Assembly (NCBI GenBank): GCA_035633495.1
Contig: DASQEU010000143.1
Direction: 5' to 3' (one strand)
DNA from: Mycobacterium sp.
Lineage (GTDB): Bacteria; Actinomycetota; Actinomycetes; Mycobacteriales; Mycobacteriaceae
Length of the DNA: 64,000 bases
Shown here: piece after piece, positions 1 to 11,989 of the stretch
Numbering within the stretch: position 1 is the first letter of the stretch
How the letters are laid out: each line of letters opens with the position of its first letter
The notes under the pieces: model-generated
What the model saw: only the letters and a program-made list of their open reading frames with translations
The model's database searches: none
Told to the model about the DNA's origin: nothing
Translations under genes and position numbers: made by a program

Positions 1-1
1 C

Positions 2-103
2 GCACTGCGCGTGGATCCCCGACTCACCGGGCCGCAGAAACGGGCGCTTCTCGCCGTGTACCGAAGCTATCTCGACGCCAACGGTCATGGCGCAGATGGC
101 TGA
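2..103 (+). CDS. 3' end of a probable XRE/HTH transcriptional regulator (partial, runs off left edge)
   Basis: Frame 2 reads ALRVDPRLTGPQKRALLAVYRSYLDANGHGADG* (TGA 101-103). This resembles the 'DPxLTxxQKxxLLxxYxSF' C-terminus of Rv0474-like actinobacterial regulators. The HTH itself is outside the window. Confidence 0.5.
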   Translation, partial: ALRVDPRLTGPQKRALLAVYRSYLDANGHGADG

Positions 104-222: not shown

Positions 223-1953
223 ATGGCCTCGTCAGACGCTCCCACCCCCTCCCCGTCACGTTCAGTTCTCGACTTGCCCGGCGTCGCCGAGAATGTCATC
301 TCCGGGGCCGACCCCGCCGCCCTGATCCGCGAGCTGCTGGCCACCGCCGCGATGACGCTGAAGCATCCAGCCGCAATCATCGCTGCCAGCGCACGTCTGG
401 CCTGGGGCTCTGCGGGGGCATTCCAAGCCGCCGCCGGACGTTCCATCGGCCATGACAATCCCGGTCCCATCGCGATCGCCCGAGGCGACAAACGGTTCTC
501 CGATCTGGCATATCAGGAAAATCCCTCATACTTCCTTCTTGCGCAACATTTCTTGTTGTTCGACCAACTCGTCGCCGAACTACTCGATGCCGCGGGAGTG
601 AGTGGATCGCGAGAAGCGAAGGCGCGCTTCGCCGCGAAATTCCTCGTCGATGCGCTCGCGCCCACGAACACCCTGCTCGGTAACCCCGCGGCGATCCGCA
701 GGGCGTTCGACACCGGCGGCAAGAGCATCGGCAGGGGCCTCAAGAATTTGGTGCACGATCTTCGTCACAACGATGGATGGCCCTCGCAAGTCGACAGCTC
801 CGAATTCGAGGTTGGCGTCAACATGGGTGCCACCCCGGGGAGCGTCGTCTACCGCAGCGATCTGATCGAGTTGATCCAATACTCGCCCCAGACGCCGGAT
901 ACGCACGCGATCCCGTTGCTCTTCTGTCCGCCCTGGATCAACAAGTTCTACATCATGGATCTTGCACCGGGCAAAAGCCTGATCGAGTGGGCGGTTCAAC
1001 ACGGACACACGTGCTTTGCCATCAGTTACCGCAATGCCGATGCGTCCATGAGCGAGCTCGGATTCCGCGACTACCTGTTCCAAGGACCGCTGGACGCCGT
1101 GCGAGTGGTTCGCGACATCACCGGTGCCCCAGCGGTAAACACGGTGTCGGTGTGCCTTGGTGGAACGCTCACCGCCATCGGGCTGGCGTACAACGCGGCA
1201 CGCGGTGACGAGTCCATCAGGACCGCAACATTTCTCAATACCCATACGGACTTCACCGAGCCAGGCTCACTCGGCACGTTCACCGACGAGGCGACGGTCG
1301 CGGGACTCGAGAAGCAGATGCTGAAGAAGGGGTTCCTGGACTCGACGACGATGGCACGGACCTTCAGTGCCCTGCGGCCAAACGACCTGATCTTCGCCTA
1401 CGTGGTGAACAATTGGCTCCTTGGTAACAAGCCGCCGTCGTTCGACCTGCTGGCCTGGAACGAAGACTCCACCCGCATGCCGGCCCGGATGCATTCGGAG
1501 TATCTGCGGTCGTGCTACGTACGCAACGAATTCGCTCGCGGCGAGTTCGAAATCGACGGCCAGTGTCTCGATCCCGGCCTCATCGACGTCGATACGTACG
1601 TGTTGTCTGCCGTGGACGACCATGTGGTGCCGTGGATCTCGGGCTACAAGACCACTCAGCTGCTGGGTGGCAAGAGCAGGTTCGTCCTGAGTACATCCGG
1701 CCACATTGCCGGTATCGTCAACCCGCCCGGCCCCAAGGCCAAGCACTGGGTGAACGCCAGCCTTCCCGCCGACCCGCGTGAATGGAAGGCGGACGCGAAA
1801 TTGGTGGACGCCACCTGGTGGCTGGACTGGACTCAGTGGATCGCCGACCGGGGCGGGGAAATGATTCCCGCACCGCAACTCCCGGGCAACGAGGACTATC
1901 CGCCGATCGAGAAGGCCCCGGGCACCTACGTCCGACCGAGCGACGCCGCGTGA
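223..1953 (+). CDS. phaC: Polyhydroxyalkanoate synthase (class I/II-type PhaC)
   Basis: 576 aa. Motifs LLFCPPWINKFYIMDL, lipase-box-like SVCLGG (catalytic Cys), WNEDSTRMPA, DDHVVPW (Asp) and SGHIAG (His). GGAGG RBS upstream. Confidence 0.93.
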   Translation: MASSDAPTPSPSRSVLDLPGVAENVISGADPAALIRELLATAAMTLKHPAAIIAASARLAWGSAGAFQAAAGRSIGHDNPGPIAIARGDKRFSDLAYQENPSYFLLAQHFLLFDQLVAELLDAAGVSGSREAKARFAAKFLVDALAPTNTLLGNPAAIRRAFDTGGKSIGRGLKNLVHDLRHNDGWPSQVDSSEFEVGVNMGATPGSVVYRSDLIELIQYSPQTPDTHAIPLLFCPPWINKFYIMDLAPGKSLIEWAVQHGHTCFAISYRNADASMSELGFRDYLFQGPLDAVRVVRDITGAPAVNTVSVCLGGTLTAIGLAYNAARGDESIRTATFLNTHTDFTEPGSLGTFTDEATVAGLEKQMLKKGFLDSTTMARTFSALRPNDLIFAYVVNNWLLGNKPPSFDLLAWNEDSTRMPARMHSEYLRSCYVRNEFARGEFEIDGQCLDPGLIDVDTYVLSAVDDHVVPWISGYKTTQLLGGKSRFVLSTSGHIAGIVNPPGPKAKHWVNASLPADPREWKADAKLVDATWWLDWTQWIADRGGEMIPAPQLPGNEDYPPIEKAPGTYVRPSDAA

Positions 1954-2684
1954 CCCATCCGCCGGAGACCATCGACTCGGAGGCATTCGTGCTGTCGATT
2001 CGTGGCCTGCGGATTGCTGCGCGAACCATCGGATCGGGTGATCCGGTGTTGTTGCTCAACGGCTTGGCCCGCCCGATGGAGAGCTGGAGGTACTTCGCCG
2101 ACGCGCTTCGCGACAGCACCGTCATCACATTGGATGGTCCTGGGGTCGGCCTGAGCGAGACCCCGATCCTTCCGCACTCGATGCCGATGTTGGCGGATGT
2201 CGCTGCACGAGTCCTCGATGCAGTTGGCGTTGAGAAGGCGGATGTCGTCGGCTTCTCGCATGGCGGCGCAGTCGCACAGCAGCTCGCGGTCGGCCACCCC
2301 GCACGCGTGAATCGGCTCGTGCTGTTGTCGACGTCGTGTGGAGTCGGGGCGGTTCCAGGCCGCAGCCGCGACGTCACGCGCAGCTGGCTTGCACCGAACC
2401 GCGGAACACGTTGGCCGCCAGCGGATCCGTTGGGCTTGCTGTGGCAGATCGCGGCCATCTCGACCTGGTCGAGCATCCCTGTGCTCGGCTGTATCGACGC
2501 ACCCACTCTGGTGATCTGCGGTGACCACGACCGTGTCGTCCCACCGGCCAACAGCAGGCTACTTGCGGCACGCATCCGCAACGCCCGCCTCGTCACGATC
2601 GAGGCCGGCCACGATCTGCAAACACCTGGTCCGGCGGCCGCTGCCGGGCAACTGGTGCAGCGGTTTCTCGATCCGGCGACCTGA
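1950..2684 (+). CDS. phaZ: Alpha/beta hydrolase resembling intracellular PHA depolymerase PhaZ
   Basis: GTG start overlaps the phaC stop (GTGA). GFSHGG nucleophile elbow, GDHDRVVP and AGH. The C-terminal half parallels Pseudomonas PhaZ (WQ...WSSI...PTLVxxGDxDxxxP...LLAxRIxNA). Confidence 0.7.
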   Translation: MTHPPETIDSEAFVLSIRGLRIAARTIGSGDPVLLLNGLARPMESWRYFADALRDSTVITLDGPGVGLSETPILPHSMPMLADVAARVLDAVGVEKADVVGFSHGGAVAQQLAVGHPARVNRLVLLSTSCGVGAVPGRSRDVTRSWLAPNRGTRWPPADPLGLLWQIAAISTWSSIPVLGCIDAPTLVICGDHDRVVPPANSRLLAARIRNARLVTIEAGHDLQTPGPAAAAGQLVQRFLDPAT

Positions 2685-2705
2685 GGTCACACGGCCGTCG
2701 GGCCC

Positions 2706-4658
2706 TCAACCGAAGGCAAGGGCCATGTCGGCTGCGGTCGGCACGGCAACCGACTCGGCAATCGCGTCCGACTCAGCAGGGGATGCCACCTGATCGTCGG
2801 GCGCGACGACGGCAGGATCGACGCGGAGAACCGCGTAGCCAGCAACCGCGCCGGCCCCGAAACCAGGAGCGAAAACCCTTGTCGGCGTGGTGATCACTTG
2901 ATCACGGACCGCGTCGTGAATGGCCAGCGGAATACTCGCCGAGGAGGCGTTGCCCACCCGTTCGATGTTGAAGTACAGCTGATCCGGCGACAGACCTGCG
3001 CCGGTCGCCAGGTCGATCACCATGGTCTTGTTCGCTTGGTGCGGGATGATCAGTTCGACGCTCGCCAGCAGCGAATCTGCGGCCCCATCCGGGTCTGGCA
3101 GGGCCCTGACGTCGTCGAGCATCTGCGTGAGGTAGCGGCCGGCCAGCGCCTTCACCTCGGGGCCGTACACCGTGATGTTGTTGCCAAACGCGGGGTTTGG
3201 CCACAGGATCGAGTTGACCTGGCTGGTCGGGCCGCTGGCATAGGTCTGGATGTACTCGATATCCGGCGGTGAACCCTCGGGTGCAGGGCCGATGACAAGG
3301 GCGGCCGCGCCGTCGCCGAAGATCATCCGGGATGGCCGGACGTTCCCGATCTTGTCGGAGAACTTCTCCGCGCAGACCACCAGCACCGGTCGTCGAACGA
3401 GTTGGAGAATTCTGACCGCCTCGGCCAGCCCATAGCTGAGGCCGGCACACGCGGCGACGAGGTCGAACGAGCAGTGCGTCTGCTGAATGCCCAACGCGCC
3501 GGAGATCCAGGTCGCGATCGACGGTATCAGCCGAGAACTGGTGCAGGTGCAGACGATAACCGCCCCGATTTGGTCTGGACTCACGCCGGCGTGAGCCAGC
3601 GCCGACCGGGCAGCCCGCAACGAGAGTTCCTCGATGCTGCCCGAGGTGTAGCGACGCTGCTCGATGCCGGTCTTGTCACGGATCTCCTCCGCAGACATGG
3701 GCGACCAGTTGTAGGCGCTGTTGCGGATGAGATCGTCGTTGGTGCACACCTGGTCGCCGTGAGCCGCGGCGATGGCCTCGATGCGAGGCTGTACCGCAAA
3801 GTCGTTGCGCACGTCGATCGCAGGGTACGGGCGGATGGGCGCAAACAATTCCGGGACAGCCGGGACAGCCTTCTTCGCCGCGTGCCCGGAGGCGATGCGG
3901 GACAGGAAGTTCGCCACCTCGGGATCACGCGGGTGGAATACCACCACGTAGTCGTCATCGTGCAGTTCACTGACCGCGACCAGGGCGGCTTCGCTGCGAC
4001 CCCACGGATACTGATTGTGCAGGACCATCGACCAGCGGCGTAGCGCCTCCAGTTCAGCCACATCCTCATTGCAGTCAATGATCTCGGCGTAGCTGTACCG
4101 GCGGAAGTCGGGGTCGAATCGATTCAGGCGGAGAGTTTGATTACCGGGGTCAGAGAGCAACTCGGCAACCGTGGGTACGACGGCCGAAAGCTTGGTCGCG
4201 TGGTTTCTACGATGGCCGAACACGTCGAAGAGGATCTCGAAGATGCTGTCCTCGACCTCGTCATCCCACTGCGCCGGAAGATTCGGGTAGGCGGAAAACA
4301 CCGCGGACACCTTGGTTTCGCTGTCCAACCACGGCGTCTGGACTGGCACGAAGACGTCGTCGCGGGTGCGCGGAACGTCGGCCCACCGGGTAGGCCGGAC
4401 ATCGAACATCGTCATCTTGAAACGATTGGCCCAGAACAGGTTGAGCGCCATGTCTCGCATCAACTCGAACTTGCTTTGGTAGGCGCCCGTCTTGATCTGC
4501 TCGAGGATGTCTGTCCCTGTGGGCGCTTTGGAATCGAAGTCACGCCGGACGACGGCATCGAGCTGCTCAAGGCTCTCGAAGGTCGAAAAGTCAAGATCGG
4601 GAAAGCAATTGGAGGGAAAGACGATCTTGCCGTGCTTGTTCAGTTCAAAAGCATCCAT
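2706..4658 (-). CDS. 3-oxoacyl-ACP/CoA synthase III (KAS III/FabH fold) with a ~260-aa N-terminal extension
   Basis: 650 aa. The C-terminal part has KTGIEQRRY, AACAG (Cys), IPHQAN (His), GNASSAS (Asn) and GFGAG. The N-terminal ~260 aa has no motif I recognise. Confidence 0.88.
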   Translation of the reverse strand: MDAFELNKHGKIVFPSNCFPDLDFSTFESLEQLDAVVRRDFDSKAPTGTDILEQIKTGAYQSKFELMRDMALNLFWANRFKMTMFDVRPTRWADVPRTRDDVFVPVQTPWLDSETKVSAVFSAYPNLPAQWDDEVEDSIFEILFDVFGHRRNHATKLSAVVPTVAELLSDPGNQTLRLNRFDPDFRRYSYAEIIDCNEDVAELEALRRWSMVLHNQYPWGRSEAALVAVSELHDDDYVVVFHPRDPEVANFLSRIASGHAAKKAVPAVPELFAPIRPYPAIDVRNDFAVQPRIEAIAAAHGDQVCTNDDLIRNSAYNWSPMSAEEIRDKTGIEQRRYTSGSIEELSLRAARSALAHAGVSPDQIGAVIVCTCTSSRLIPSIATWISGALGIQQTHCSFDLVAACAGLSYGLAEAVRILQLVRRPVLVVCAEKFSDKIGNVRPSRMIFGDGAAALVIGPAPEGSPPDIEYIQTYASGPTSQVNSILWPNPAFGNNITVYGPEVKALAGRYLTQMLDDVRALPDPDGAADSLLASVELIIPHQANKTMVIDLATGAGLSPDQLYFNIERVGNASSASIPLAIHDAVRDQVITTPTRVFAPGFGAGAVAGYAVLRVDPAVVAPDDQVASPAESDAIAESVAVPTAADMALAFG

Positions 4659-4730
4659 TGCCCATCACCTTCACTGAGAGGTTTGCGCGTTGATGTGACT
4701 CCAGGCGATGCCCAACAGGTCCCGAACCGA

Positions 4731-5576
4731 TCACATGTCCAGACCACCGTTGACTCCCCATACCTGTCCGGTGATGTACCCGGAGGCGTCGGCGGCCAGG
4801 AAGTGCACCACGCGGGCAATCTCATCCGGCCGGGCAAGGCGGCCCGCGGGGATGGTGGTCTTGATTCGGTCGAGTACCTTCTCGGGGATGGACTCGACCA
4901 TCTCGGTCGCCACGTAACCGGGTGTGACGGTGTTGACCGTGACGCCGATACCGTCTTCACTCAACTTGTCCGCGCGCGCCAGCTGGAAACACGCCTCGCG
5001 CGCCAGTGTCTTCGTCAGGCCGAACAGTCCGGCCTTGGAAGCGGCGTAGTTCGCCTGACCGATGGCGCCCGTTTCACCGATGACCGAAGAGACGATGACG
5101 ATCCGCCCGCTGCCGCGCTCGAGCATGTGCGCCAACGCCGCCTGGGCGAGGAAGAACGCCCCGGACAGGTTCACCGCGATGACCTTGTTCCATTCCTCGT
5201 CGGTCATCCTTGCCACCGTTTTGTCGATGGTGATGCCGGCGTTGTTGATCAGGATGTCGAGGCGGCCGTGACGCTCGATCACCTCGCGGACGGTCCGTCG
5301 GCAGTCATCACCGTTCGAGACGTCGCCCTGATGGACGCTGACCTCGCCGCCCTCACTGGCTTCCGACAACTCGGCGAGGAACTTTTGCGCCTCTACGGTA
5401 TTCGTGCTGTACCCCGCCGCTACCGTCGCACCCTGGTGGGCCAGGCTTTTGCTGATCGCGGCGCCGATCCCACGGGTGCCGCCCGTCACGAAGGCGACGC
5501 GCCCACGGAGCTTCCCTCCCCACGCCTCTGCGAACCGAGACTCGCCGATCTGATCAACGGACGTCGCTGTCATCAT
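4731..5576 (-). CDS. phaB: Acetoacetyl-CoA/3-oxoacyl reductase (PhaB/FabG-type SDR)
   Basis: TGGTRGIG, NNAG, YAASK and PGYVATEMV motifs. ATG at 5576 follows AAGGA. Located in the phaC cluster. Confidence 0.8.
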   Translation of the reverse strand: MMTATSVDQIGESRFAEAWGGKLRGRVAFVTGGTRGIGAAISKSLAHQGATVAAGYSTNTVEAQKFLAELSEASEGGEVSVHQGDVSNGDDCRRTVREVIERHGRLDILINNAGITIDKTVARMTDEEWNKVIAVNLSGAFFLAQAALAHMLERGSGRIVIVSSVIGETGAIGQANYAASKAGLFGLTKTLAREACFQLARADKLSEDGIGVTVNTVTPGYVATEMVESIPEKVLDRIKTTIPAGRLARPDEIARVVHFLAADASGYITGQVWGVNGGLDM

Positions 5577-6084
5577 GATCCTTATCTTTGAAGTTGTGCT
5601 TCTCGTGGTTCCTCGGCTGTCACAGCGGTGGTGGTGGTGGTGACGAGGACGGACGGGGGTCTGGCCGGTACTTCGGTCGTGACGACATCGCACTCAAGCG
5701 CGGACGCGACGAGTAGGTCGGTGGGGAACCGGGCGAGGTGGGTGACCTCGACGTACCGGGAGTGCAGTCCACAACACAACCATCCAAGCCTTTTGCCATC
5801 GCGACATACGCCGAGGGGAGGCAAATCGGGGCGAGCTTCGAGACTCTGGGTGCGGTAGACGTTGCTTGCGCGATCACGGCCGCTAAGCGGCGATCGCGTT
5901 ACCAGACCGGCATTTTCTTGCCCTGTTCAGTGCACTCTCGATGCCACCCAATGTCAAGCGATGCACCCCGGCCTTATCCTCGAGGCCACCTTCACCATCC
6001 CGAGTTTGATGCAGACTCTGATGTACCCCGGGTTGTCCGGAGTCCGTTTGCTTGACTTCTGGTCACGACGTCCACAAAGGAGCC

Positions 6085-6444
6085 GTGCCCGTGCCCATGC
6101 GTTATCCCGAAGAGTTCCTCCGCAAAGTGCTCGACGTGGTGGCCGCCGGCCGCCCGGTGGCCCAGATCGCTGCCGATCTGGAGATCAGCGACCAGACCAT
6201 CTACGACTGGCGCCGCCAGGAGCTGATCGATAAAGGACAGCTGCCGGGATTGAACCGCACTGAGCTGTCCGAGCTCAGCGCGGCCAACAAGCGCACCGAT
6301 GAACTGGAGACCGAGGTGGCCATCCTGAAAAGGGTCCGTGAGCTGCTCCGGGAGCCGCACGACCCAAAAGACGGTACGCGGGCATACCGACTATGTCCGC
6401 AGAAGGACTCCCCGTACAGAAGGCGTGTCGAAGGCTCGAGGTAG
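6085..6444 (+). CDS. IS3 OrfA (HTH DNA-binding)
   Basis: RYPEEF...VAQIAADLEISDQTIYDWRRQ. AAGGAG RBS upstream. CCCAAAAG slippery-like site near 6363-6370. Confidence 0.8.
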   Translation: MPVPMRYPEEFLRKVLDVVAAGRPVAQIAADLEISDQTIYDWRRQELIDKGQLPGLNRTELSELSAANKRTDELETEVAILKRVRELLREPHDPKDGTRAYRLCPQKDSPYRRRVEGSR

Positions 6445-7270
6445 CCGAGTCGGGCTTCTATGAGTGGCGGTCTCGGGCGCCGTCAGCACGGTCGGTCCGC
6501 CATGCCGGGCTCACCGACCAGACCCGGGCCGTGCACACCGCCTCACGTGGCACCTACGGCGGGTCCACGCCGAACTGACCCTCGGGCTGGGGCTGGCGGT
6601 CGGGCATAACCAGGTCGAGATGCTGATGACCCGAGCCGCGAGAAAGGGACTGCCGGGTAACCGGCGCCCCCGACCCCGACACGAGACCCCGACAGCCGCC
6701 GATCTGGTCGAGCGGATGCTCACCCGCGAAGCGCCAAACCGGTTGTGGGTCAACGACATCACCGAACATCGCACCTACGAAGGCAAGGTGTACTGTGCAG
6801 TCGTTCTGGAACCGTTCTCCCGACGTGTGGTCGGATGGTCGATCGACTCGAGTCAGCCGCGGCGCTAGTCGCCAACGCGCTGAGTATGGCCATCGCCAAT
6901 CGCGACCCCCAATCGGGCGGGATCATTCATTCCGACCACGGCGTGCAGTTGACCTCGTGGGCCTTTACAGATAGCGCCAAGCGCTCTGGACTGGTGCCAT
7001 CCATGGGCTCGATCGGTCAATGCTACGACAACGCGATGATCGAATCTTTCTGGGGCAGAATGCGAACGGAGCTACTCAACCGCAAGCGATGGAAGTCACG
7101 CGTAGAGCTAGGCAACGCAATATTCGACTACCTAGAAATCTTCCAAAACCGGCAACGCCGTCATTCCGCCCTCGGGATGCGCACTCCGATAGAGTTCGAA
7201 CTGCTACGCCATCCGCCCAACCCGTGGCCTGAAACCAGGTATAGCGACACCGCCGAACCAGGGGCACATC
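6393..7270 (+). pseudogene. IS3 OrfB DDE transposase, frameshifted at least twice
   Basis: The rve core is split over three frames: ACRRLEVAESGFYEW..GTYG (6393-6578), RVHAEL..WVNDIT..FSRRVVGW (to 6868), and HSDHG..YDNAMIESFW..HSALGMRTP (6745 frame). Confidence 0.88.
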
Positions 7271-7362
7271 ATTTACGGCCGGTCGACGCGCGAACGGCCC
7301 GCCCGGAGAGTGGTGACGGGCCGAACAATAGATCAGACGCGGGGAAACGTGAATCGGTTCGT

Positions 7363-7740
7363 TCAGAGTGCGACTTTGGCGCCACCTGAGAACATCGAGT
7401 CATGAAACTCCAGCTCTGCGGACTTGGTGCCAGGCGGCACGTCGAAGGCCGTCTTGACTTGAATGGAGTTGCCGGGATTGATGTCGGCCATAAGTGCGCC
7501 CTCGTCGTTCATCCACATATCTGCAGAGGAGTCCACGCCATACTCGCGACCCGACGTGTCGATGAGCTTCTGGTTTGACCCAAAATACGATTGAGTCTTG
7601 TCGCCGATGTTCCTGACGGACAGCGTCAGGATGATGAACTCGCCTTGCGCGTTTGCGATCATGTACGGATTGCTCAGGTCACCAGCCTGCGTCGGGCGCG
7701 TCATCCCGACCACGCGGAACTCGAACTTGCCGTCGCGACG
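7363..7740 (-). pseudogene. DUF4352 (MPT63-like Ig-fold) protein, 5'-truncated
   Basis: RDGKFEF...GEFIILTLSVRNIGD..QKLID..INPGNSI....FDVPPGT...LEFHDSMFSGG. No signal or TM N-terminus; the sequence upstream of 7740 belongs to the opposite-strand integrase. Confidence 0.7.
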
Positions 7741-8561
7741 TCGGCGAGGCGAACCCCGCCCGAATTGATGCGGCTCTGCGATCGATGCGAAGTGCGCACG
7801 AACCGACAACGGCGCGGCAGTCGAAAACCATCCTTCACGGCGCCCTCCAGCTGGCGGTGATGGCGAACGTGCTCGGCAGCAATCCGGTGCGGGACGTGCA
7901 GACGATCAGGTCGAAGAACCGGCCAAAGGGCGCAACCCGCTCACTGCCGACGAGCTGCGCCAGCTGGTGGCGAAGGTGCGCGCTTCTGCCTACTGCCGAC
8001 ACCACGATTTGGCCGACCCGATCACCGTGCTCGCCGCAACCGGGCTGCGGGAGTCTGAACTACTCGGACTCCTGTGGCGCGACTTCGACGCAGACGCCGG
8101 CATCCTGACGGTGACCGGAATGTTGGGCCGGGCCGCCCGGCAAGGGTTGCCACGACATGACACGGCCAAAAGCGACGCCGGCCTGCGCACCCTGCCGCCT
8201 GCCTCGCTTCGCCGTCGACGTCCTCAAGGCACGGCGCCATCTACCCTTCCTCGGCGAGCAGGAGATGATCTTCCCGTCCACGGCGGGGACGCTGCGTCAC
8301 CCTAACAATTTCAACCAGCAGTGGCGGCAGATCCGTGACGAGCTCGGCGCGTCCAACGCGAACACTCACAGCTTTCGCAAGTCCCTTGCCACGTTGATTG
8401 ACGACGAAGGCTTGTCGGCGCGCATCGGCGCCGACCACCTCGGCCACACCAACGTCTCGATGACGCAGGACGAGTACAGGAGCCGCGGACGCGTTCACAC
8501 GCAAGTGGCCGACCTGCTGGACCGAGTCATCGTTGTAATGACTCACAGAAAACGATCTTGA
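7740..8561 (+). pseudogene. Tyrosine integrase remnant (5'-truncated, frameshifted)
   Basis: Three frames: ARQSKTILHGALQLAV..NPVRDV; LAATGLRESELLGLLWRDFD; and HSFRK..LGH..TQDEY. The R, HxxR, H and Y catalytic motifs are present. Confidence 0.9.
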
Positions 8562-8599
8562 GTAGGGCGACTGGGACTTGAACCCAGGACCAACGGATT
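8562..8599. repeat. att core: 38-bp direct repeat of the tRNA(CAT) 3' half
   Basis: GTAGGGCGACTGGGACTTGAACCCAGGACCAACGGATT is identical at 8562-8599 and 11811-11848. Confidence 0.95.
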
Positions 8600-8942
8600 T
8601 CCGATCCGTGGTTCTGAATAGTTCCTAGGAAGCTCCGTTAATCGTTGCCGCACAATCCGTTTCACTGCAACTGACACAAGGGTGGCGAAGCCATCACGTG
8701 GTGACGTCGAAGACGCTCTTTACTCGACCGATCGGGAAGTCAGACACTGCCGAATGAGCTCGCACTCAGCTTAGGACTTTGGCCCCTATTTCCCGGCGTC
8801 CGGGCAAGCCAAGACTGAAACCGCACGAAAAGCCTTCTGCACCGCTGCGAGGCAAGGACCGCCGTGGCGGCCCGCGCCCGGTTTCCGGCGAGCGGCGGGT
8901 ACGCGTAGTCGAAGCACGAATGATGTCCAGAGGACTGCAGCT

Positions 8943-10343
8943 ATGACCAAACCGATTCCGCCGCTTGACCTTTTATGGCTGCTGATCGAGTCACCGGGCA
9001 GCACGACGCACGTCGGGGCGATGCTGCTGTTCAAAAAGCCCGCGGGCCGCAGGCCCGTCGTGCGCGAGATCGTGGAGGCGTACCGGGCGCAGCGGCCCGC
9101 GCCGCCGTTCACCTATGTCCCGGAGCTCCTGGGCGGCGCGCCCCATTTCCGGGAGGTGGCGAGCTGGGACCCGCGGTACCACATCCAGCATCTGTCGCTG
9201 CCCGCGGGAGCCTGCTATGACGACCTGCTGCGGCTCGTGGCCGATCTGCACGAGCCGATGATCGATCGCGACCGCCCGCTGTTTCGCTGCTGGGTGATCG
9301 ATGGGGTGCCGGGCGGCATGTTCGCGATCTACACGAAGAGCCATCACTCCATCATCGACGGCGCCTCCGGCATGAAGATCCTGTACGCAGGCCTGAGCAC
9401 GTCCGCTCAGCCCACGATCGACAGACCCGCCTTTGCGCTCGGCGTGCCGGTGCCCAAGCCGCGCCCGCCGACGCCGGTCACGCAGAGAATCGCCGACTCG
9501 ATCCGCGCGGCGGTCACGCAGGTCGAGGCGCTCAACCAGGTCTCGGTCGGCGCGCTGCGCAAGACGTTGGCCGGGCTCGTGGGCTCGCATCTCGACGGCA
9601 GCCTGCCGTTCACGGCGCAGCACGCCCCGACCAACGAGCCGCTCACAATGGGGCGCAGGTTCGCGACGCTCGCGCTGCCGCTCGAGGAGATGCACGAAAT
9701 CGGCCGGCACTTCGGGGCGACCCTCAACGACGTGGCCGTCACCGTCATCGACGCCGGGCTGCATGCCTACCTGCGCGAGACCGGCCGCGCCTTTACCCAC
9801 CCGTTCATCTCGATGTGTCCGGTGTCGCTGCGTGCCGACGGCGACACCGCGATCGGCACCCGGGTGTCGGCGATGTTCGTGCGGCTCGGCGAGCCCGACG
9901 CGACCGTGCCGCAGCGGATCCGGCAAGTGGTGGACTCGGTCGCCACGGCCAAAAAGGAGCTGCGCGGCATGTCGAAGGACGCGGCGATGACCTACGCGGT
10001 CGGAGTCGTCGCGCTCGCGGGTCTGGCCGCCTCGACGCACCTGGACCGGGTCGGGCACCCGGCCTGCAACCTGGTCATTTCCAACGTGCCGGGCGCCAGG
10101 GAGCCCCGGTATCTCAACGCTGCACGCCTCGTCGGCATCTACCCGGTCTCCGCGCTCGCCGCCTCGATCGGGCTGAACGCCACGCTCACCTCCTACCACG
10201 ACCATATGGACTTCGGGTTCGTCGCAAACGCCGCGGCGATCGACGACGTGGCCGAGCTCGCGCATCACACGCTGCAGGCCTACACGGAGCTGAAAGAAGC
10301 GGCTGGAAAGCAGCCGGCTGGTCGCAAGCGCACGCCGTCCTGA
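8943..10343 (+). CDS. Wax ester synthase/diacylglycerol acyltransferase (WS/DGAT)
   Basis: 466 aa. HHSIIDG (HHxxxDG) active-site motif, ATLNDVA, CPVSLR, NLVISNVPG. Confidence 0.93.
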   Translation: MTKPIPPLDLLWLLIESPGSTTHVGAMLLFKKPAGRRPVVREIVEAYRAQRPAPPFTYVPELLGGAPHFREVASWDPRYHIQHLSLPAGACYDDLLRLVADLHEPMIDRDRPLFRCWVIDGVPGGMFAIYTKSHHSIIDGASGMKILYAGLSTSAQPTIDRPAFALGVPVPKPRPPTPVTQRIADSIRAAVTQVEALNQVSVGALRKTLAGLVGSHLDGSLPFTAQHAPTNEPLTMGRRFATLALPLEEMHEIGRHFGATLNDVAVTVIDAGLHAYLRETGRAFTHPFISMCPVSLRADGDTAIGTRVSAMFVRLGEPDATVPQRIRQVVDSVATAKKELRGMSKDAAMTYAVGVVALAGLAASTHLDRVGHPACNLVISNVPGAREPRYLNAARLVGIYPVSALAASIGLNATLTSYHDHMDFGFVANAAAIDDVAELAHHTLQAYTELKEAAGKQPAGRKRTPS

Positions 10344-10369
10344 CCGACCGCTACCTCGAGCCTCGCGAG

Positions 10370-10397
10370 CCGACCGACCGACCGACCGACCGACCGA
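10370..10397. repeat. (CCGA)7 tetranucleotide microsatellite
   Basis: Seven perfect CCGA units followed by CGACGA. Confidence 0.95.
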
Positions 10398-10493
10398 CGA
10401 CGAAACATGTTGTGGTGAGTTTCTAGCCGTTGCGTGGGGGTTTCCCTACGTGTTCCAACTCGCTGTCCGCGGTTCCTGAGGCGTTGTACGCGG

Positions 10494-10623
10494 TCAGCCG
10501 GTGTCCAGGAACGGCACGAACTCTGTCCAGGCGTTCTCCCACAATCGAATGATGGCCGGGTATTGGGCGCCCCATTTCGCGGTGAACTCGACGAAGCGTT
10601 CCTTGGCCGCCGCCTCCGTCGAC
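10494..10623 (-). pseudogene. IS256-family transposase internal fragment
   Basis: STEAAAKERFVEFTAKWGAQYPAIIRLWENAWTEFVPFLD is a typical IS256/mutator C-terminal segment. No ends identified. Confidence 0.75.
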
Positions 10624-11542
10624 GAACTGAACCTGGCCACGACTGTGTTCGGCGTGGCTCTTTGCCTACGTCGACACCGCGCTGTGCCTGGCCGAGGAGG
10701 TGGACACCACCGAGCGAACGGTGGCTGCGCAGCGCCGCGGCGAGCCAGGCCGAGATGGTCAGCACCATCCTGTCCGGGCAATCCATCGACATCGACGTCG
10801 CCGGCCAACGCCTGCGCCACGACCTGCGCCGGGTGCACGTGGCCGCAGTCGCTTGGCTGGACGCTCACGAAGAGGGCCGCAACACCCATGCCCTGCTCGA
10901 AGCCGCCATTCCGCGACATCGCCGCGGCGATCGGCACCCAGCGACCTCTCATTCAGCCCCTCGGCACACTCTCGGTCGCCGACTGGGAGCACCAGCAGCC
11001 CGGTGCCGTCCAGGGTGCTCGACGAACTGCGGTTCCGGACGGCGACGGCACCGGGCGTCCGGGTCGCGATCGGCGAACCGGCACGCGACATCGCGGGCTT
11101 TCGTGCCAGCCATGTAGAGGCACTCGAAGCGCAGAGCATCGCGCGGTTGGCGGGGCGTCGCGAGGGAAGCATCACCCGGTACGGCGACATTTCGCTGCGC
11201 GCACTTGCGACGGCGAACATCGGCCAAGCCCGGGGCTTCGTTGCACGCGAGCTGGGCGCACTGGCGGATGGCGATGACACCACCCGCCGGCTCGCCGCGA
11301 CCGTGCGCACCAATCTCGACGAGAACGGAAGCCGCGCCAGGACAGCCAAACGACTCAGCGTTCACGAGAACACCGTGACCTACCGGCTCAGGCAAGCCGA
11401 GGAACTGTTGGGGCGGTCAGTGGACAAACGCACGCTCGAGTTGCGGGTTGCACTCGCCTTGGCCGATCTCGTCGACGAGACGCATGGAACGAGCGGGTCG
11501 ACTCCTGCCGACACTTCGGCATATGCGGGCATCCACAACTGA
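10618..11542 (+). pseudogene. PucR/CdaR-family transcriptional regulator, 5'-truncated and frameshifted
   Basis: C-terminal HTH (SRARTAKRLSVHENTVTYRLRQAEELLG) and GGDEF-like segment (RVAIGEPARDIAGFRASHVEA). The N-terminal part is spread over several frames. Confidence 0.85.
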
Positions 11543-11548
11543 GGCGCG

Positions 11549-11767
11549 CGACAGGTGCGGGACGGGGTCGGGGCCGCCAGCGTGACCACGCACAGTTTCC
11601 GCAAGACGGTCGCCGCCCTGATCGACGGCGGGGGCCTGTCCGCGCGGATCGGTGCCGACCACCTGGGACACACCAACGTGTCGATGACGCAGGACAGGTA
11701 CATGGCCCGAGGTCGGAGCCAGATCGAGGTAGCCGATCTCCTTGACCGAGCCATAAACGACGAATAA
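11549..11767 (+). pseudogene. Second tyrosine integrase remnant (C-terminal ~70 aa only)
   Basis: THSFRK..LGHTNVSMTQDRY. By my count 49/69 aa are identical to the C-terminus of the 7740-8561 remnant. Confidence 0.88.
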
Positions 11768-11811
11768 ACATCGACTCGAAAAAATCGATCTTGAAAAAAC
11801 AGCCTCTGACG

Positions 11812-11885
11812 TAGGGCGACTGGGACTTGAACCCAGGACCAACGGATTATGAGTCCGCGGCTCTAACCAACTGAGCTATCGCCCC
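11812..11885 (-). tRNA. tRNA with CAT anticodon (probably Ile2/lysidine type, often annotated Met)
   Basis: GGGGCGATAGCTCAGTTGGTTAGAGCCGCGGACTCATAATCCGTTGGTCCTGGGTTCAAGTCCCAGTCGCCCTA folds as a cloverleaf with loop CTCATAA. CCA is not encoded. Confidence 0.95.
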
Positions 11886-11989
11886 CTTGCGCGCGTGCGC
11901 GGTCCCCATGGTCGCACAACCCGTCGGTGATCCTCGCCGGCGATATCCGAACTTCATCATGATCAACCCCGCCGCATTAGGCTCCGACC

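Follow-up and report, generated by a model that had tools for sequence, protein, structure and literature searches.

We examined a polyhydroxyalkanoate (PHA) locus at the left end of a 64,000-nucleotide stretch of DNA, hereafter the window, from a soil Mycobacterium sp. [quoted passage not shown] The window covers positions 22610-86609 of this 94.7-kb contig (C143), which belongs to a 5.28-Mb genome in 192 contigs, and annotation was carried 22.6 kb beyond the window into the left flank. On the plus strand, phaC and a gene for an alpha/beta hydrolase converge with the KAS III gene and a gene for a reductase of the short-chain dehydrogenase/reductase (SDR) family on the minus strand (Table 1). 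A sequence-only reading had described this arrangement as a phaC-phaZ pair facing a KASIII-phaB pair, and the open reading frame (ORF) listing and family scans found all four genes where it had placed them, base-exact at both ends; the order of the minus-strand pair is corrected here, since the reductase lies upstream and the KAS III gene follows it. The four ORFs are long, match protein families and have counterparts of 75-92% identity in related genomes, and thus are not chance ORFs. A promoter and terminator scan was uninformative (0 promoters; 5 terminator-like sites against 3.6 expected).

Table 1. Genes and domains of the PHA locus and its left flank. Coordinates are window positions unless prefixed by C143 or L003.
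Feature	Coordinates	Strand	Matches and remarks
phaC, class-I-like PHA synthase, 576 aa	223..1953	+	PhaC_N E 2e-56; PF07167 191 bits
Alpha/beta hydrolase, 244 aa	1950..2684	+	Abhydrolase_1 match; GFSHG lipase box
KAS III (FabH-like) catalytic domain, residues 286-650 of 650-aa protein	2706..3803	-	ACP_syn_III, ACP_syn_III_C
Orphan N-terminal domain, ~285 aa of 650-aa KAS III	3804..4658	-	without Pfam/NCBIfam match
SDR 3-ketoacyl reductase, PhaB/FabG-like, 281 aa	4731..5576	-	upstream of and co-directional with KAS III
Single-chain acetyl/propionyl-CoA carboxylase, 1833 aa	C143:16350-21851 (L003:5741-11242)	-	BC, BCCP, ACC_central, CT
Acetate-uptake transporter, acyl-CoA synthetase, acyl-CoA dehydrogenase	C143:11830-16298 (L003:1221-5689)	-	left of carboxylase
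XRE-type HTH regulator, 123 aa, 3' end in window	1..103	+	HTH_3 51.5 bits
99-aa Ala-rich ORF	L003:11386-11685, 315-614 nt left of window	+	Phasin_2 E 0.036, sub-threshold

The window copy of phaC is the only one in this genome. The sequence-only reading had called it intact, and the PhaC_N match together with the conserved triad residues Cys311, Asp466 and His494 agrees with that description. On the class I model TIGR01838 the protein scores 576 bits, under the 622-bit cut-off, and on the class II model 464 bits; an S-V-C-L-G box is common to 31 of 36 KAS-linked orthologues. The longest ORF of the hydrolase begins at 1782, and its likeliest start is a GTG at 1950 that overlaps the TGA stop of phaC as GTGA, an overlap that suggests translational coupling of the two genes. 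The hydrolase had been read as phaZ-like. Its assignment to the alpha/beta hydrolases stands, and membership in PhaZ does not: the protein scores 124 bits on its top NCBIfam match, PHA depolymerase (TIGR02240), whose cut-off is 250. We regard it as a candidate PHA depolymerase or 3-hydroxyacyl thioesterase that is weakly PhaZ-like.

The KAS III gene occupies positions 2706-4658 of the minus strand, and the KAS III domains span residues 292-613, with Pfam scores above the cut-offs (PF08545, 42 bits; PF08541, 68 bits). Cys404, His540 and Asn570 align to the catalytic triad of Escherichia coli FabH and are invariant in 23 diverse members of the family, in line with the intact triad claimed from the sequence alone. 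The protein falls under the cut-offs for housekeeping FabH, with 182 against 249 bits on NF006829 and 155 against 292 bits on TIGR00747. Its best matches in the Protein Data Bank (PDB) have E values of 1e-24 to 1e-36, the top one being Vibrio cholerae FabH2 (E 3e-36). At the positions of R249, K256 and K257 of E. coli FabH, which we take to be ACP-docking residues, the alignment places T545, T552 and G553. No close paralogue emerged when the KAS domain was run against the genome by tblastn, and a Pfam search found 5-6 further KAS III-like genes, so the long KAS III need not serve fatty-acid synthesis.

Ahead of the catalytic domain lies the N-terminal domain, which is an orphan fold and the hallmark of a conserved KAS III family. 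An AlphaFold model of the domain has a mean confidence (pLDDT) of 84.8 and a predicted TM-score (pTM) of 0.78, the full-length model a pLDDT of 77, and a Foldseek search of the domain model against the PDB gave no fold match (best E 3.5). Across 24 sequences the domain has 59 invariant columns. More than 120 proteins are at least 78% identical over the full KAS III length, and a HMMER search with the domain returned 358 representatives at the 50% identity level, many of them fragments. The seven full-length relatives scanned (622-881 aa) all have the domain ahead of the KAS III domain. No match to the domain was found among the plasmids of PLSDB; one homologue is nonetheless annotated as plasmid-borne. 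An apparent fusion of a carboxyltransferase domain to the N-terminal domain (P0172) was not counted, its C-terminal part reading out of frame as a frameshift or read-through artefact. One metagenome-assembled genome (MAG; L039) holds two long KAS III paralogues 4 kb apart, at 4036-5985 and 10001-11950; identity to the window protein is 59-63% for one and 78-81% for the other, and phaC comes directly after the second.

The reductase gene starts at an ATG at 5576, preceded by AAGGA, and ends 72 nt upstream of the KAS III start. It scores 279 bits on the acetoacetyl-CoA reductase model TIGR01829 (cut-off 302) and 172 bits on the PhaB model NF042966 (cut-off 436).

Just left of the window, and divergent from phaC, lies a gene for a large carboxylase. 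On a single chain it carries, in order, the biotin carboxylase (BC), biotin carboxyl carrier protein (BCCP), ACC_central and carboxyltransferase (CT) domains, which is the architecture of eukaryote-type acetyl-CoA carboxylase (ACC), and it would make malonyl-CoA. SACE_4237, of the same architecture, carboxylates acetyl- and propionyl-CoA and not palmitoyl-CoA (PMC6491548). Identity with the mycobacterial carboxylase for long-chain acyl-CoA (LCC), which would imply alkylmalonyl chemistry, was ruled out by this domain order, LCC having its CT domain at the N-terminus and BC-BCCP C-terminal, without ACC_central (PMC6491548). Farther left, the acetate-uptake transporter matches AceTr_1 at 136 bits (cut-off 50) and the acyl-CoA synthetase is PRK08162-like (641 bits); with the dehydrogenase, these genes may form an arm that feeds acetate into PHA. 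Three further loci (L015-L017) likewise have an AceTr paralogue close to the module, and the transporter, synthetase and dehydrogenase are otherwise not conserved with it. A further left-flank candidate, orf397, has conserved tblastn matches and was dropped, its translation resembling an antisense artefact.

The sequence-only reading had noted that the window holds no thiolase, and this holds for the entire contig: phaA was sought to the left of the window and across C143 and not found. The genome contains about 12 true thiolases, none of them on this contig. Of 80 related loci, only two have a thiolase gene within 10 kb of the long KAS III.

We surveyed two sets of genomes for the long KAS III. 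In a sample of 201 genomes of the same GTDB family, 12 encode the N-terminal domain and 62 have phaC, which is present in all 12 domain-bearing genomes. The association has a Fisher p of 3e-7 by genome and 0.04 by genus, the latter being so modest because seven of the 12 belong to one genus. ACC_central proteins occur in 107 of the 201; within the genus of the window, the carboxylase is found, together with the KAS III, only in this genome of the 12 sampled. The 80 related loci, 47 of them with full flanks, came from a pattern scan across about 186,000 species genomes, and their neighbourhoods were searched by tblastn with the window's own proteins out to 10 kb from the KAS III gene. Carriers include Mycolicibacterium hodleri, many Mycobacterium MAGs, the Rhodococcus ruber group, Millisia and Aldersonia, as well as Nocardioidaceae, Nakamurella, Geodermatophilus, Actinomycetospora, Dermatophilaceae and an Acidimicrobiales MAG. 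Near the KAS III gene, 60 of the 80 loci have an SDR orthologue, 35 have phaC and 39 the carboxylase; the subset of 47 with full flanks gives 36, 22 and 24, respectively. Of these 47, 37 have at least one of phaC and the carboxylase, and five have none of the partner genes. By chance, a single-copy gene in a 5-Mb genome would fall within a given 20 kb in about 0.4% of cases. Co-occurrence of the long KAS III with phaC, which the sequence-only reading had proposed to survey, is thus found both by genome and by locus; this result and the lack of phaA on the contig, the two refuting conditions open to computation, both favour that reading. Hydrolase orthologues adjoin KAS III or phaC in 24 of the 80 loci, and in R. 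ruber the hydrolase converges on the KAS III gene. No gene for an ACP, FabD or phosphopantetheinyl transferase (PPTase) was seen in any annotated locus.

The partner genes recur in at least eight orders. In the order of the window, SDR-KAS converges with hydrolase-phaC and the carboxylase lies beyond. Mycolicibacterium hodleri (L016) has a co-directional SDR-KAS-phaC-hydrolase-ACC run, and other loci show SDR-KAS-ACC-phaC (L047), KAS convergent with phaC-SDR (L064, L066), phaC-SDR-KAS (L040) or KAS-ACC (L061, L063, L065, L086). The Nocardioidaceae order is ACC-KAS converging with SDR2-HTH-hydrolase-phaC-SDR, and that of the R. ruber group is ACC-x-SDR-KAS converging with the hydrolase. That linkage survives such wide rearrangement argues for a shared function, and the divergent carboxylase, travelling with the KAS III gene in about half of the loci, strengthens a malonyl-CoA-driven reading. 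In the Nocardioidaceae-type loci, a second SDR (about 31% identical) and a second regulator of the XRE family stand between KAS III and hydrolase-phaC (L062:11969-13496, with equivalents in L053-L055, L058, L060 and L068).

More distant relatives extend this picture. In one locus (L098), a homologue of 643 aa, 37% identical in its N-terminal domain, is encoded within a run of KAS, phaC, SDR and acyl-CoA ligase genes that overlap by 4 and 14 nt. A natural fusion of the N-terminal domain, KAS III and SDR into a single 881-aa protein (P0135) occurs at L095:10001-12646 and also in L096 and L097, the identical protein being called on three assemblies of different sources; its SDR part is 47% identical to the window SDR. 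At 1.7 kb from the fusion gene is a gene for a PhaC of 355 aa, the size of class III, and at 4.1 kb one with a PHB_acc_N domain (PhaR). The 355-aa phaC is followed by small genes with faint hints of PhaE and phasin, and the contig is metagenomic, has 56% GC and is probably non-actinobacterial. The joining of KAS III and SDR in one chain, beside another class of PhaC and the PHA-specific regulator PhaR, indicates direct reduction of the KAS product by a pair that works in PHA synthesis; we take the fusion as strong independent support for this role. In another locus (L099) an enoyl-CoA hydratase gene adjoins a distant homologue.

Taken together, gene content and conserved neighbourhood make a strong case that the KAS III, SDR and carboxylase module is tied to PHA synthesis. 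As to what the module does, we consider it likely, with a probability of about 0.6, that the locus is a self-contained PHA cluster in which a malonyl-CoA-driven supply of monomers, akin to that of NphT7, operates without a thiolase. We infer the substrates, products, primer and direction of flux as follows. The neighbouring eukaryote-type carboxylase would turn acetyl-CoA into malonyl-CoA, using ATP. The 650-aa KAS III would then join a short acyl-CoA primer, most likely acetyl- or propionyl-CoA, with malonyl-CoA to give 3-ketoacyl-CoA and CO2, and the decarboxylation would render the condensation irreversible, as in the reaction type of NphT7. The co-transcribed SDR would reduce the 3-ketoacyl-CoA to (R)-3-hydroxyacyl-CoA, which PhaC would polymerise, and the coupled hydrolase would act as the cognate depolymerase or as a thioesterase. 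The N-terminal domain may tether or regulate the KAS, with PhaC, the granule and the carboxylase as conceivable sites. We lean towards CoA rather than ACP as the carrier used by the KAS III because the annotated loci lack ACP and FabD genes, the genes are directly coupled to phaC, the docking residues are altered and NphT7 offers a precedent.

Several observations weigh against this reading. The genome has many thiolases, including an unlinked pair at C24:52859-54405, where an acetyl-CoA C-acetyltransferase (NF004853, 703 bits, over the cut-off) adjoins a FabG-type reductase (NF004198, 398 bits); this pair could supply 3-hydroxybutyryl-CoA in the conventional way, by thiolase and reductase. 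The thiolase-independent pathway of the sequence-only reading hence stands for the locus and not for the cell: "thiolase-free" describes the cluster and is no proof of thiolase-independent PHA synthesis in the organism, in which the KAS III route need not be the sole source of monomers. The last gene of the L098 operon, at the edge of its contig, is a thiolase fragment, and most genomes with ACC_central proteins have no long KAS III, so the carboxylase is not dedicated to the module. With respect to the carrier, the nearest solved relatives of the KAS domain are all ACP-dependent FabH enzymes, an invariant Lys544 beside the R249 position could still dock ACP, and the reductase matches FabG nearly as well as acetoacetyl-CoA reductase (TIGR01830, 266 bits, against 279). 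These features would suit an ACP-level route resembling the link from fatty-acid synthesis to PHA in Pseudomonas, with a FabH-type KAS using malonyl-ACP (on AcpM), the SDR acting as FabG on 3-ketoacyl-ACP, the hydrolase serving in the manner of PhaG as thioesterase or transacylase for 3-hydroxyacyl-ACP, and an acyl-CoA ligase re-activating the acid for PhaC. The retention of the hydrolase beside KAS or phaC, even where phaC is distant, and the AMP-binding ligases in the left flank of the window, in L062 and in the L098 operon would fit as well. Yet the three docking positions hold Thr, Thr and Gly, the annotated loci are devoid of genes for ACP, FabD and PPTase, the hydrolase matches PHA depolymerase best and not a transacylase, ligase orthologues occur in just three of the 80 loci, and the KAS/phaC and phaC/SDR overlaps of L098 better fit a pathway at the CoA level. 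We consider the ACP-level route unlikely.

A second alternative keeps the same chemistry and changes the primer: the KAS III would extend a medium- or long-chain acyl-CoA, derived from fatty-acid uptake and activation or from beta-oxidation, by one C2 unit and so feed medium-chain 3-hydroxyacyl-CoA to PhaC in place of 3-hydroxybutyrate or 3-hydroxyvalerate units. V. cholerae FabH2 prefers medium chains. The equivalent of F87 in the window protein is an Ile in a "LIP" motif, as in that enzyme, its top PDB match, and hints that the primer may exceed acetyl in length; the left flank has genes for an acyl-CoA synthetase and an acyl-CoA dehydrogenase, and the enoyl-CoA hydratase of L099 points the same way. 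What makes longer primers improbable to us is that PhaC scores higher on the class I than on the class II model (576 against 464 bits), that the class I synthase of R. ruber takes C3-C5 monomers (PMC2667194), that the linked type of carboxylase works on acetyl- and propionyl-CoA, that an acetate-uptake transporter adjoins this carboxylase, and that the ligase and dehydrogenase are not conserved with the module. It would be very surprising if the KAS-SDR(-ACC) genes were unrelated to PHA, making a 3-hydroxy acid, a lipid or a small polyketide, with the proximity of phaC incidental or due to a shared mobile island. In favour of such a disconnection, phaC lies more than 1 Mb from the ACC-SDR-KAS-hydrolase unit in the R. 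ruber group, though it is present in every such genome; five of the 47 full-flank loci have no partner gene nearby; and the cluster looks horizontally acquired. Opposed to it are the linkage of phaC in 22 of the 47 full-flank loci, in several families and in many gene orders, where chance would give about 0.4%, the presence of phaC in every KAS-bearing genome of the family sample, the overlap of the L098 genes with phaC, and the fusion protein beside a class-III-like PhaC and PhaR on a contig of 56% GC.

The malonyl-CoA-driven reading has its closest functional parallel in NphT7 of Streptomyces sp. CL190 (EC 2.3.1.194), a KAS III homologue that joins acetyl-CoA with malonyl-CoA to form acetoacetyl-CoA (PMC5509993); an engineered route of NphT7, PhaB and PhaC yields polyhydroxybutyrate (PHB). 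Both enzymes are KAS III homologues in clusters that need acetoacetyl-CoA and lack a thiolase, and by analogy a decarboxylative condensation with malonyl-CoA is proposed for the one described here. NphT7 is a single-domain protein of about 330 aa from mevalonate clusters, whereas the present protein has 650 aa, an orphan N-terminal domain and a place in PHA clusters with a partner set that includes a single-chain ACC. FabH enzymes, including those of Mycobacterium tuberculosis and V. cholerae (FabH2), share the catalytic domain and the Cys-His-Asn triad with the long KAS III, which differs from them in falling under the NCBIfam cut-offs, in its extra 285-aa domain, in the non-basic equivalents of R249, K256 and K257 and in lying outside a fab cluster.

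Like the canonical phaCAB operon, the cluster joins PhaC to a PhaB/FabG-like NAD(P)H-dependent reductase, and a short-chain PHA is expected. In contrast to phaCAB, a KAS III and a malonyl-CoA-forming carboxylase would take the place of PhaA in a cluster and contig without thiolase, and the route, at one ATP for each condensation, would be irreversible. The pairing of an actinobacterial class-I-like phaC with an alpha/beta hydrolase recalls the phaC-phaZ loci of Rhodococcus (R. ruber PhaC/ORF4; R. jostii RHA1 phaC1-3/phaZ1-3), which have no thiolase or reductase genes clustered with them (PMC2667194). Unlike in those loci, the KAS-SDR-ACC module joins the pair here and in many relatives, and the hydrolase is below the PhaZ cut-off. 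The carboxylase shares with SACE_4237 of Saccharopolyspora erythraea the BC, BCCP, ACC_central and CT domains and a size of about 200 kDa (PMC6491548); SACE_4237 is the essential housekeeping ACC of its host, while the present enzyme is accessory in its genus, being found in none of the 11 other genomes and standing beside PHA genes.

Two small genes, co-directional with phaC, separate it from the carboxylase: the 99-aa ORF and then the gene for the helix-turn-helix (HTH) regulator of the XRE type. The latter begins 268 nt left of the window, and its last 103 nt fall within it. Of the 80 related loci, 28 have the XRE gene and 14 the 99-aa ORF, with loci of Nocardioidaceae and Acidimicrobiales among them, and in the loci whose coordinates were compared the pair stands immediately upstream of phaC. 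With its sub-threshold Phasin_2 match, the 99-aa ORF is a candidate granule protein, possibly a phasin.

The cluster has a GC content of 63-64%, as compared to 67% genome-wide, and is absent from the 11 other sampled genomes of the genus; to its right lie IS3-family fragments, an integrase fragment and a tRNA-linked island. The lower GC, the insertion-sequence and integrase boundary on the right and the absence from congeners together suggest that the cluster was horizontally acquired in this mycobacterium. Directly right of the reductase gene, three ORFs at window positions 6052-7389 (HTH_Tnp_1; then rve, rve_3 and rve_2) are remnants of an IS3-family transposase, and the element looks decayed or frameshifted. 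Beyond it, at positions 7363-10343, follow a minus-strand gene for a DUF4352 protein, the phage-integrase fragment (8157-8561) and a gene for a wax-ester/triacylglycerol synthase of the WS/DGAT type (8943-10343), so that a gene for neutral-lipid storage stands 3.4 kb away from the PHA cluster.

Pairs of phaC with a hydrolase gene, NphT7 and its engineered use for PHB, and eukaryote-type ACC in bacteria are already known. In the open-access literature we found no paper on this KAS III family, on its N-terminal domain, or on a natural KAS III-based or thiolase-independent PHA route, the engineered use of NphT7 being the only relevant work. A broader reading can be put forward tentatively, and we place it below even odds: the KAS family, with a ketoreductase and often a eukaryote-type ACC, would form a widespread natural thiolase bypass, powered by ATP and the release of CO2, that sends carbon irreversibly to (R)-3-hydroxyacyl-CoA, the N-terminal domain docking the enzyme to the carboxylase, PhaC or the granule. 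Since R. ruber has the module and the linked type of carboxylase takes propionyl-CoA, the module could also underlie the copolymers rich in 3-hydroxyvalerate (3HV) which the R. ruber group forms on unrelated carbon sources.

The first step of PHA synthesis is taken to be a thiolase reaction, which is reversible and thermodynamically unfavourable, and metabolic engineers swap this step for NphT7 to gain driving force. If the malonyl-CoA-driven reading is true, nature already uses an irreversible replacement for the thiolase, by way of a distinct enzyme family with a private supply of malonyl-CoA, and this family is spread over many Actinomycetota and beyond. The module would then provide candidate monomer-supply genes for actinobacterial PHA loci that have no linked thiolase or reductase (PMC2667194), as well as ready-made parts for the high-flux production of PHA, possibly including poly(3-hydroxybutyrate-co-3-hydroxyvalerate) (PHBV). 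It would also give a function to an orphan domain that is present in hundreds of proteins.

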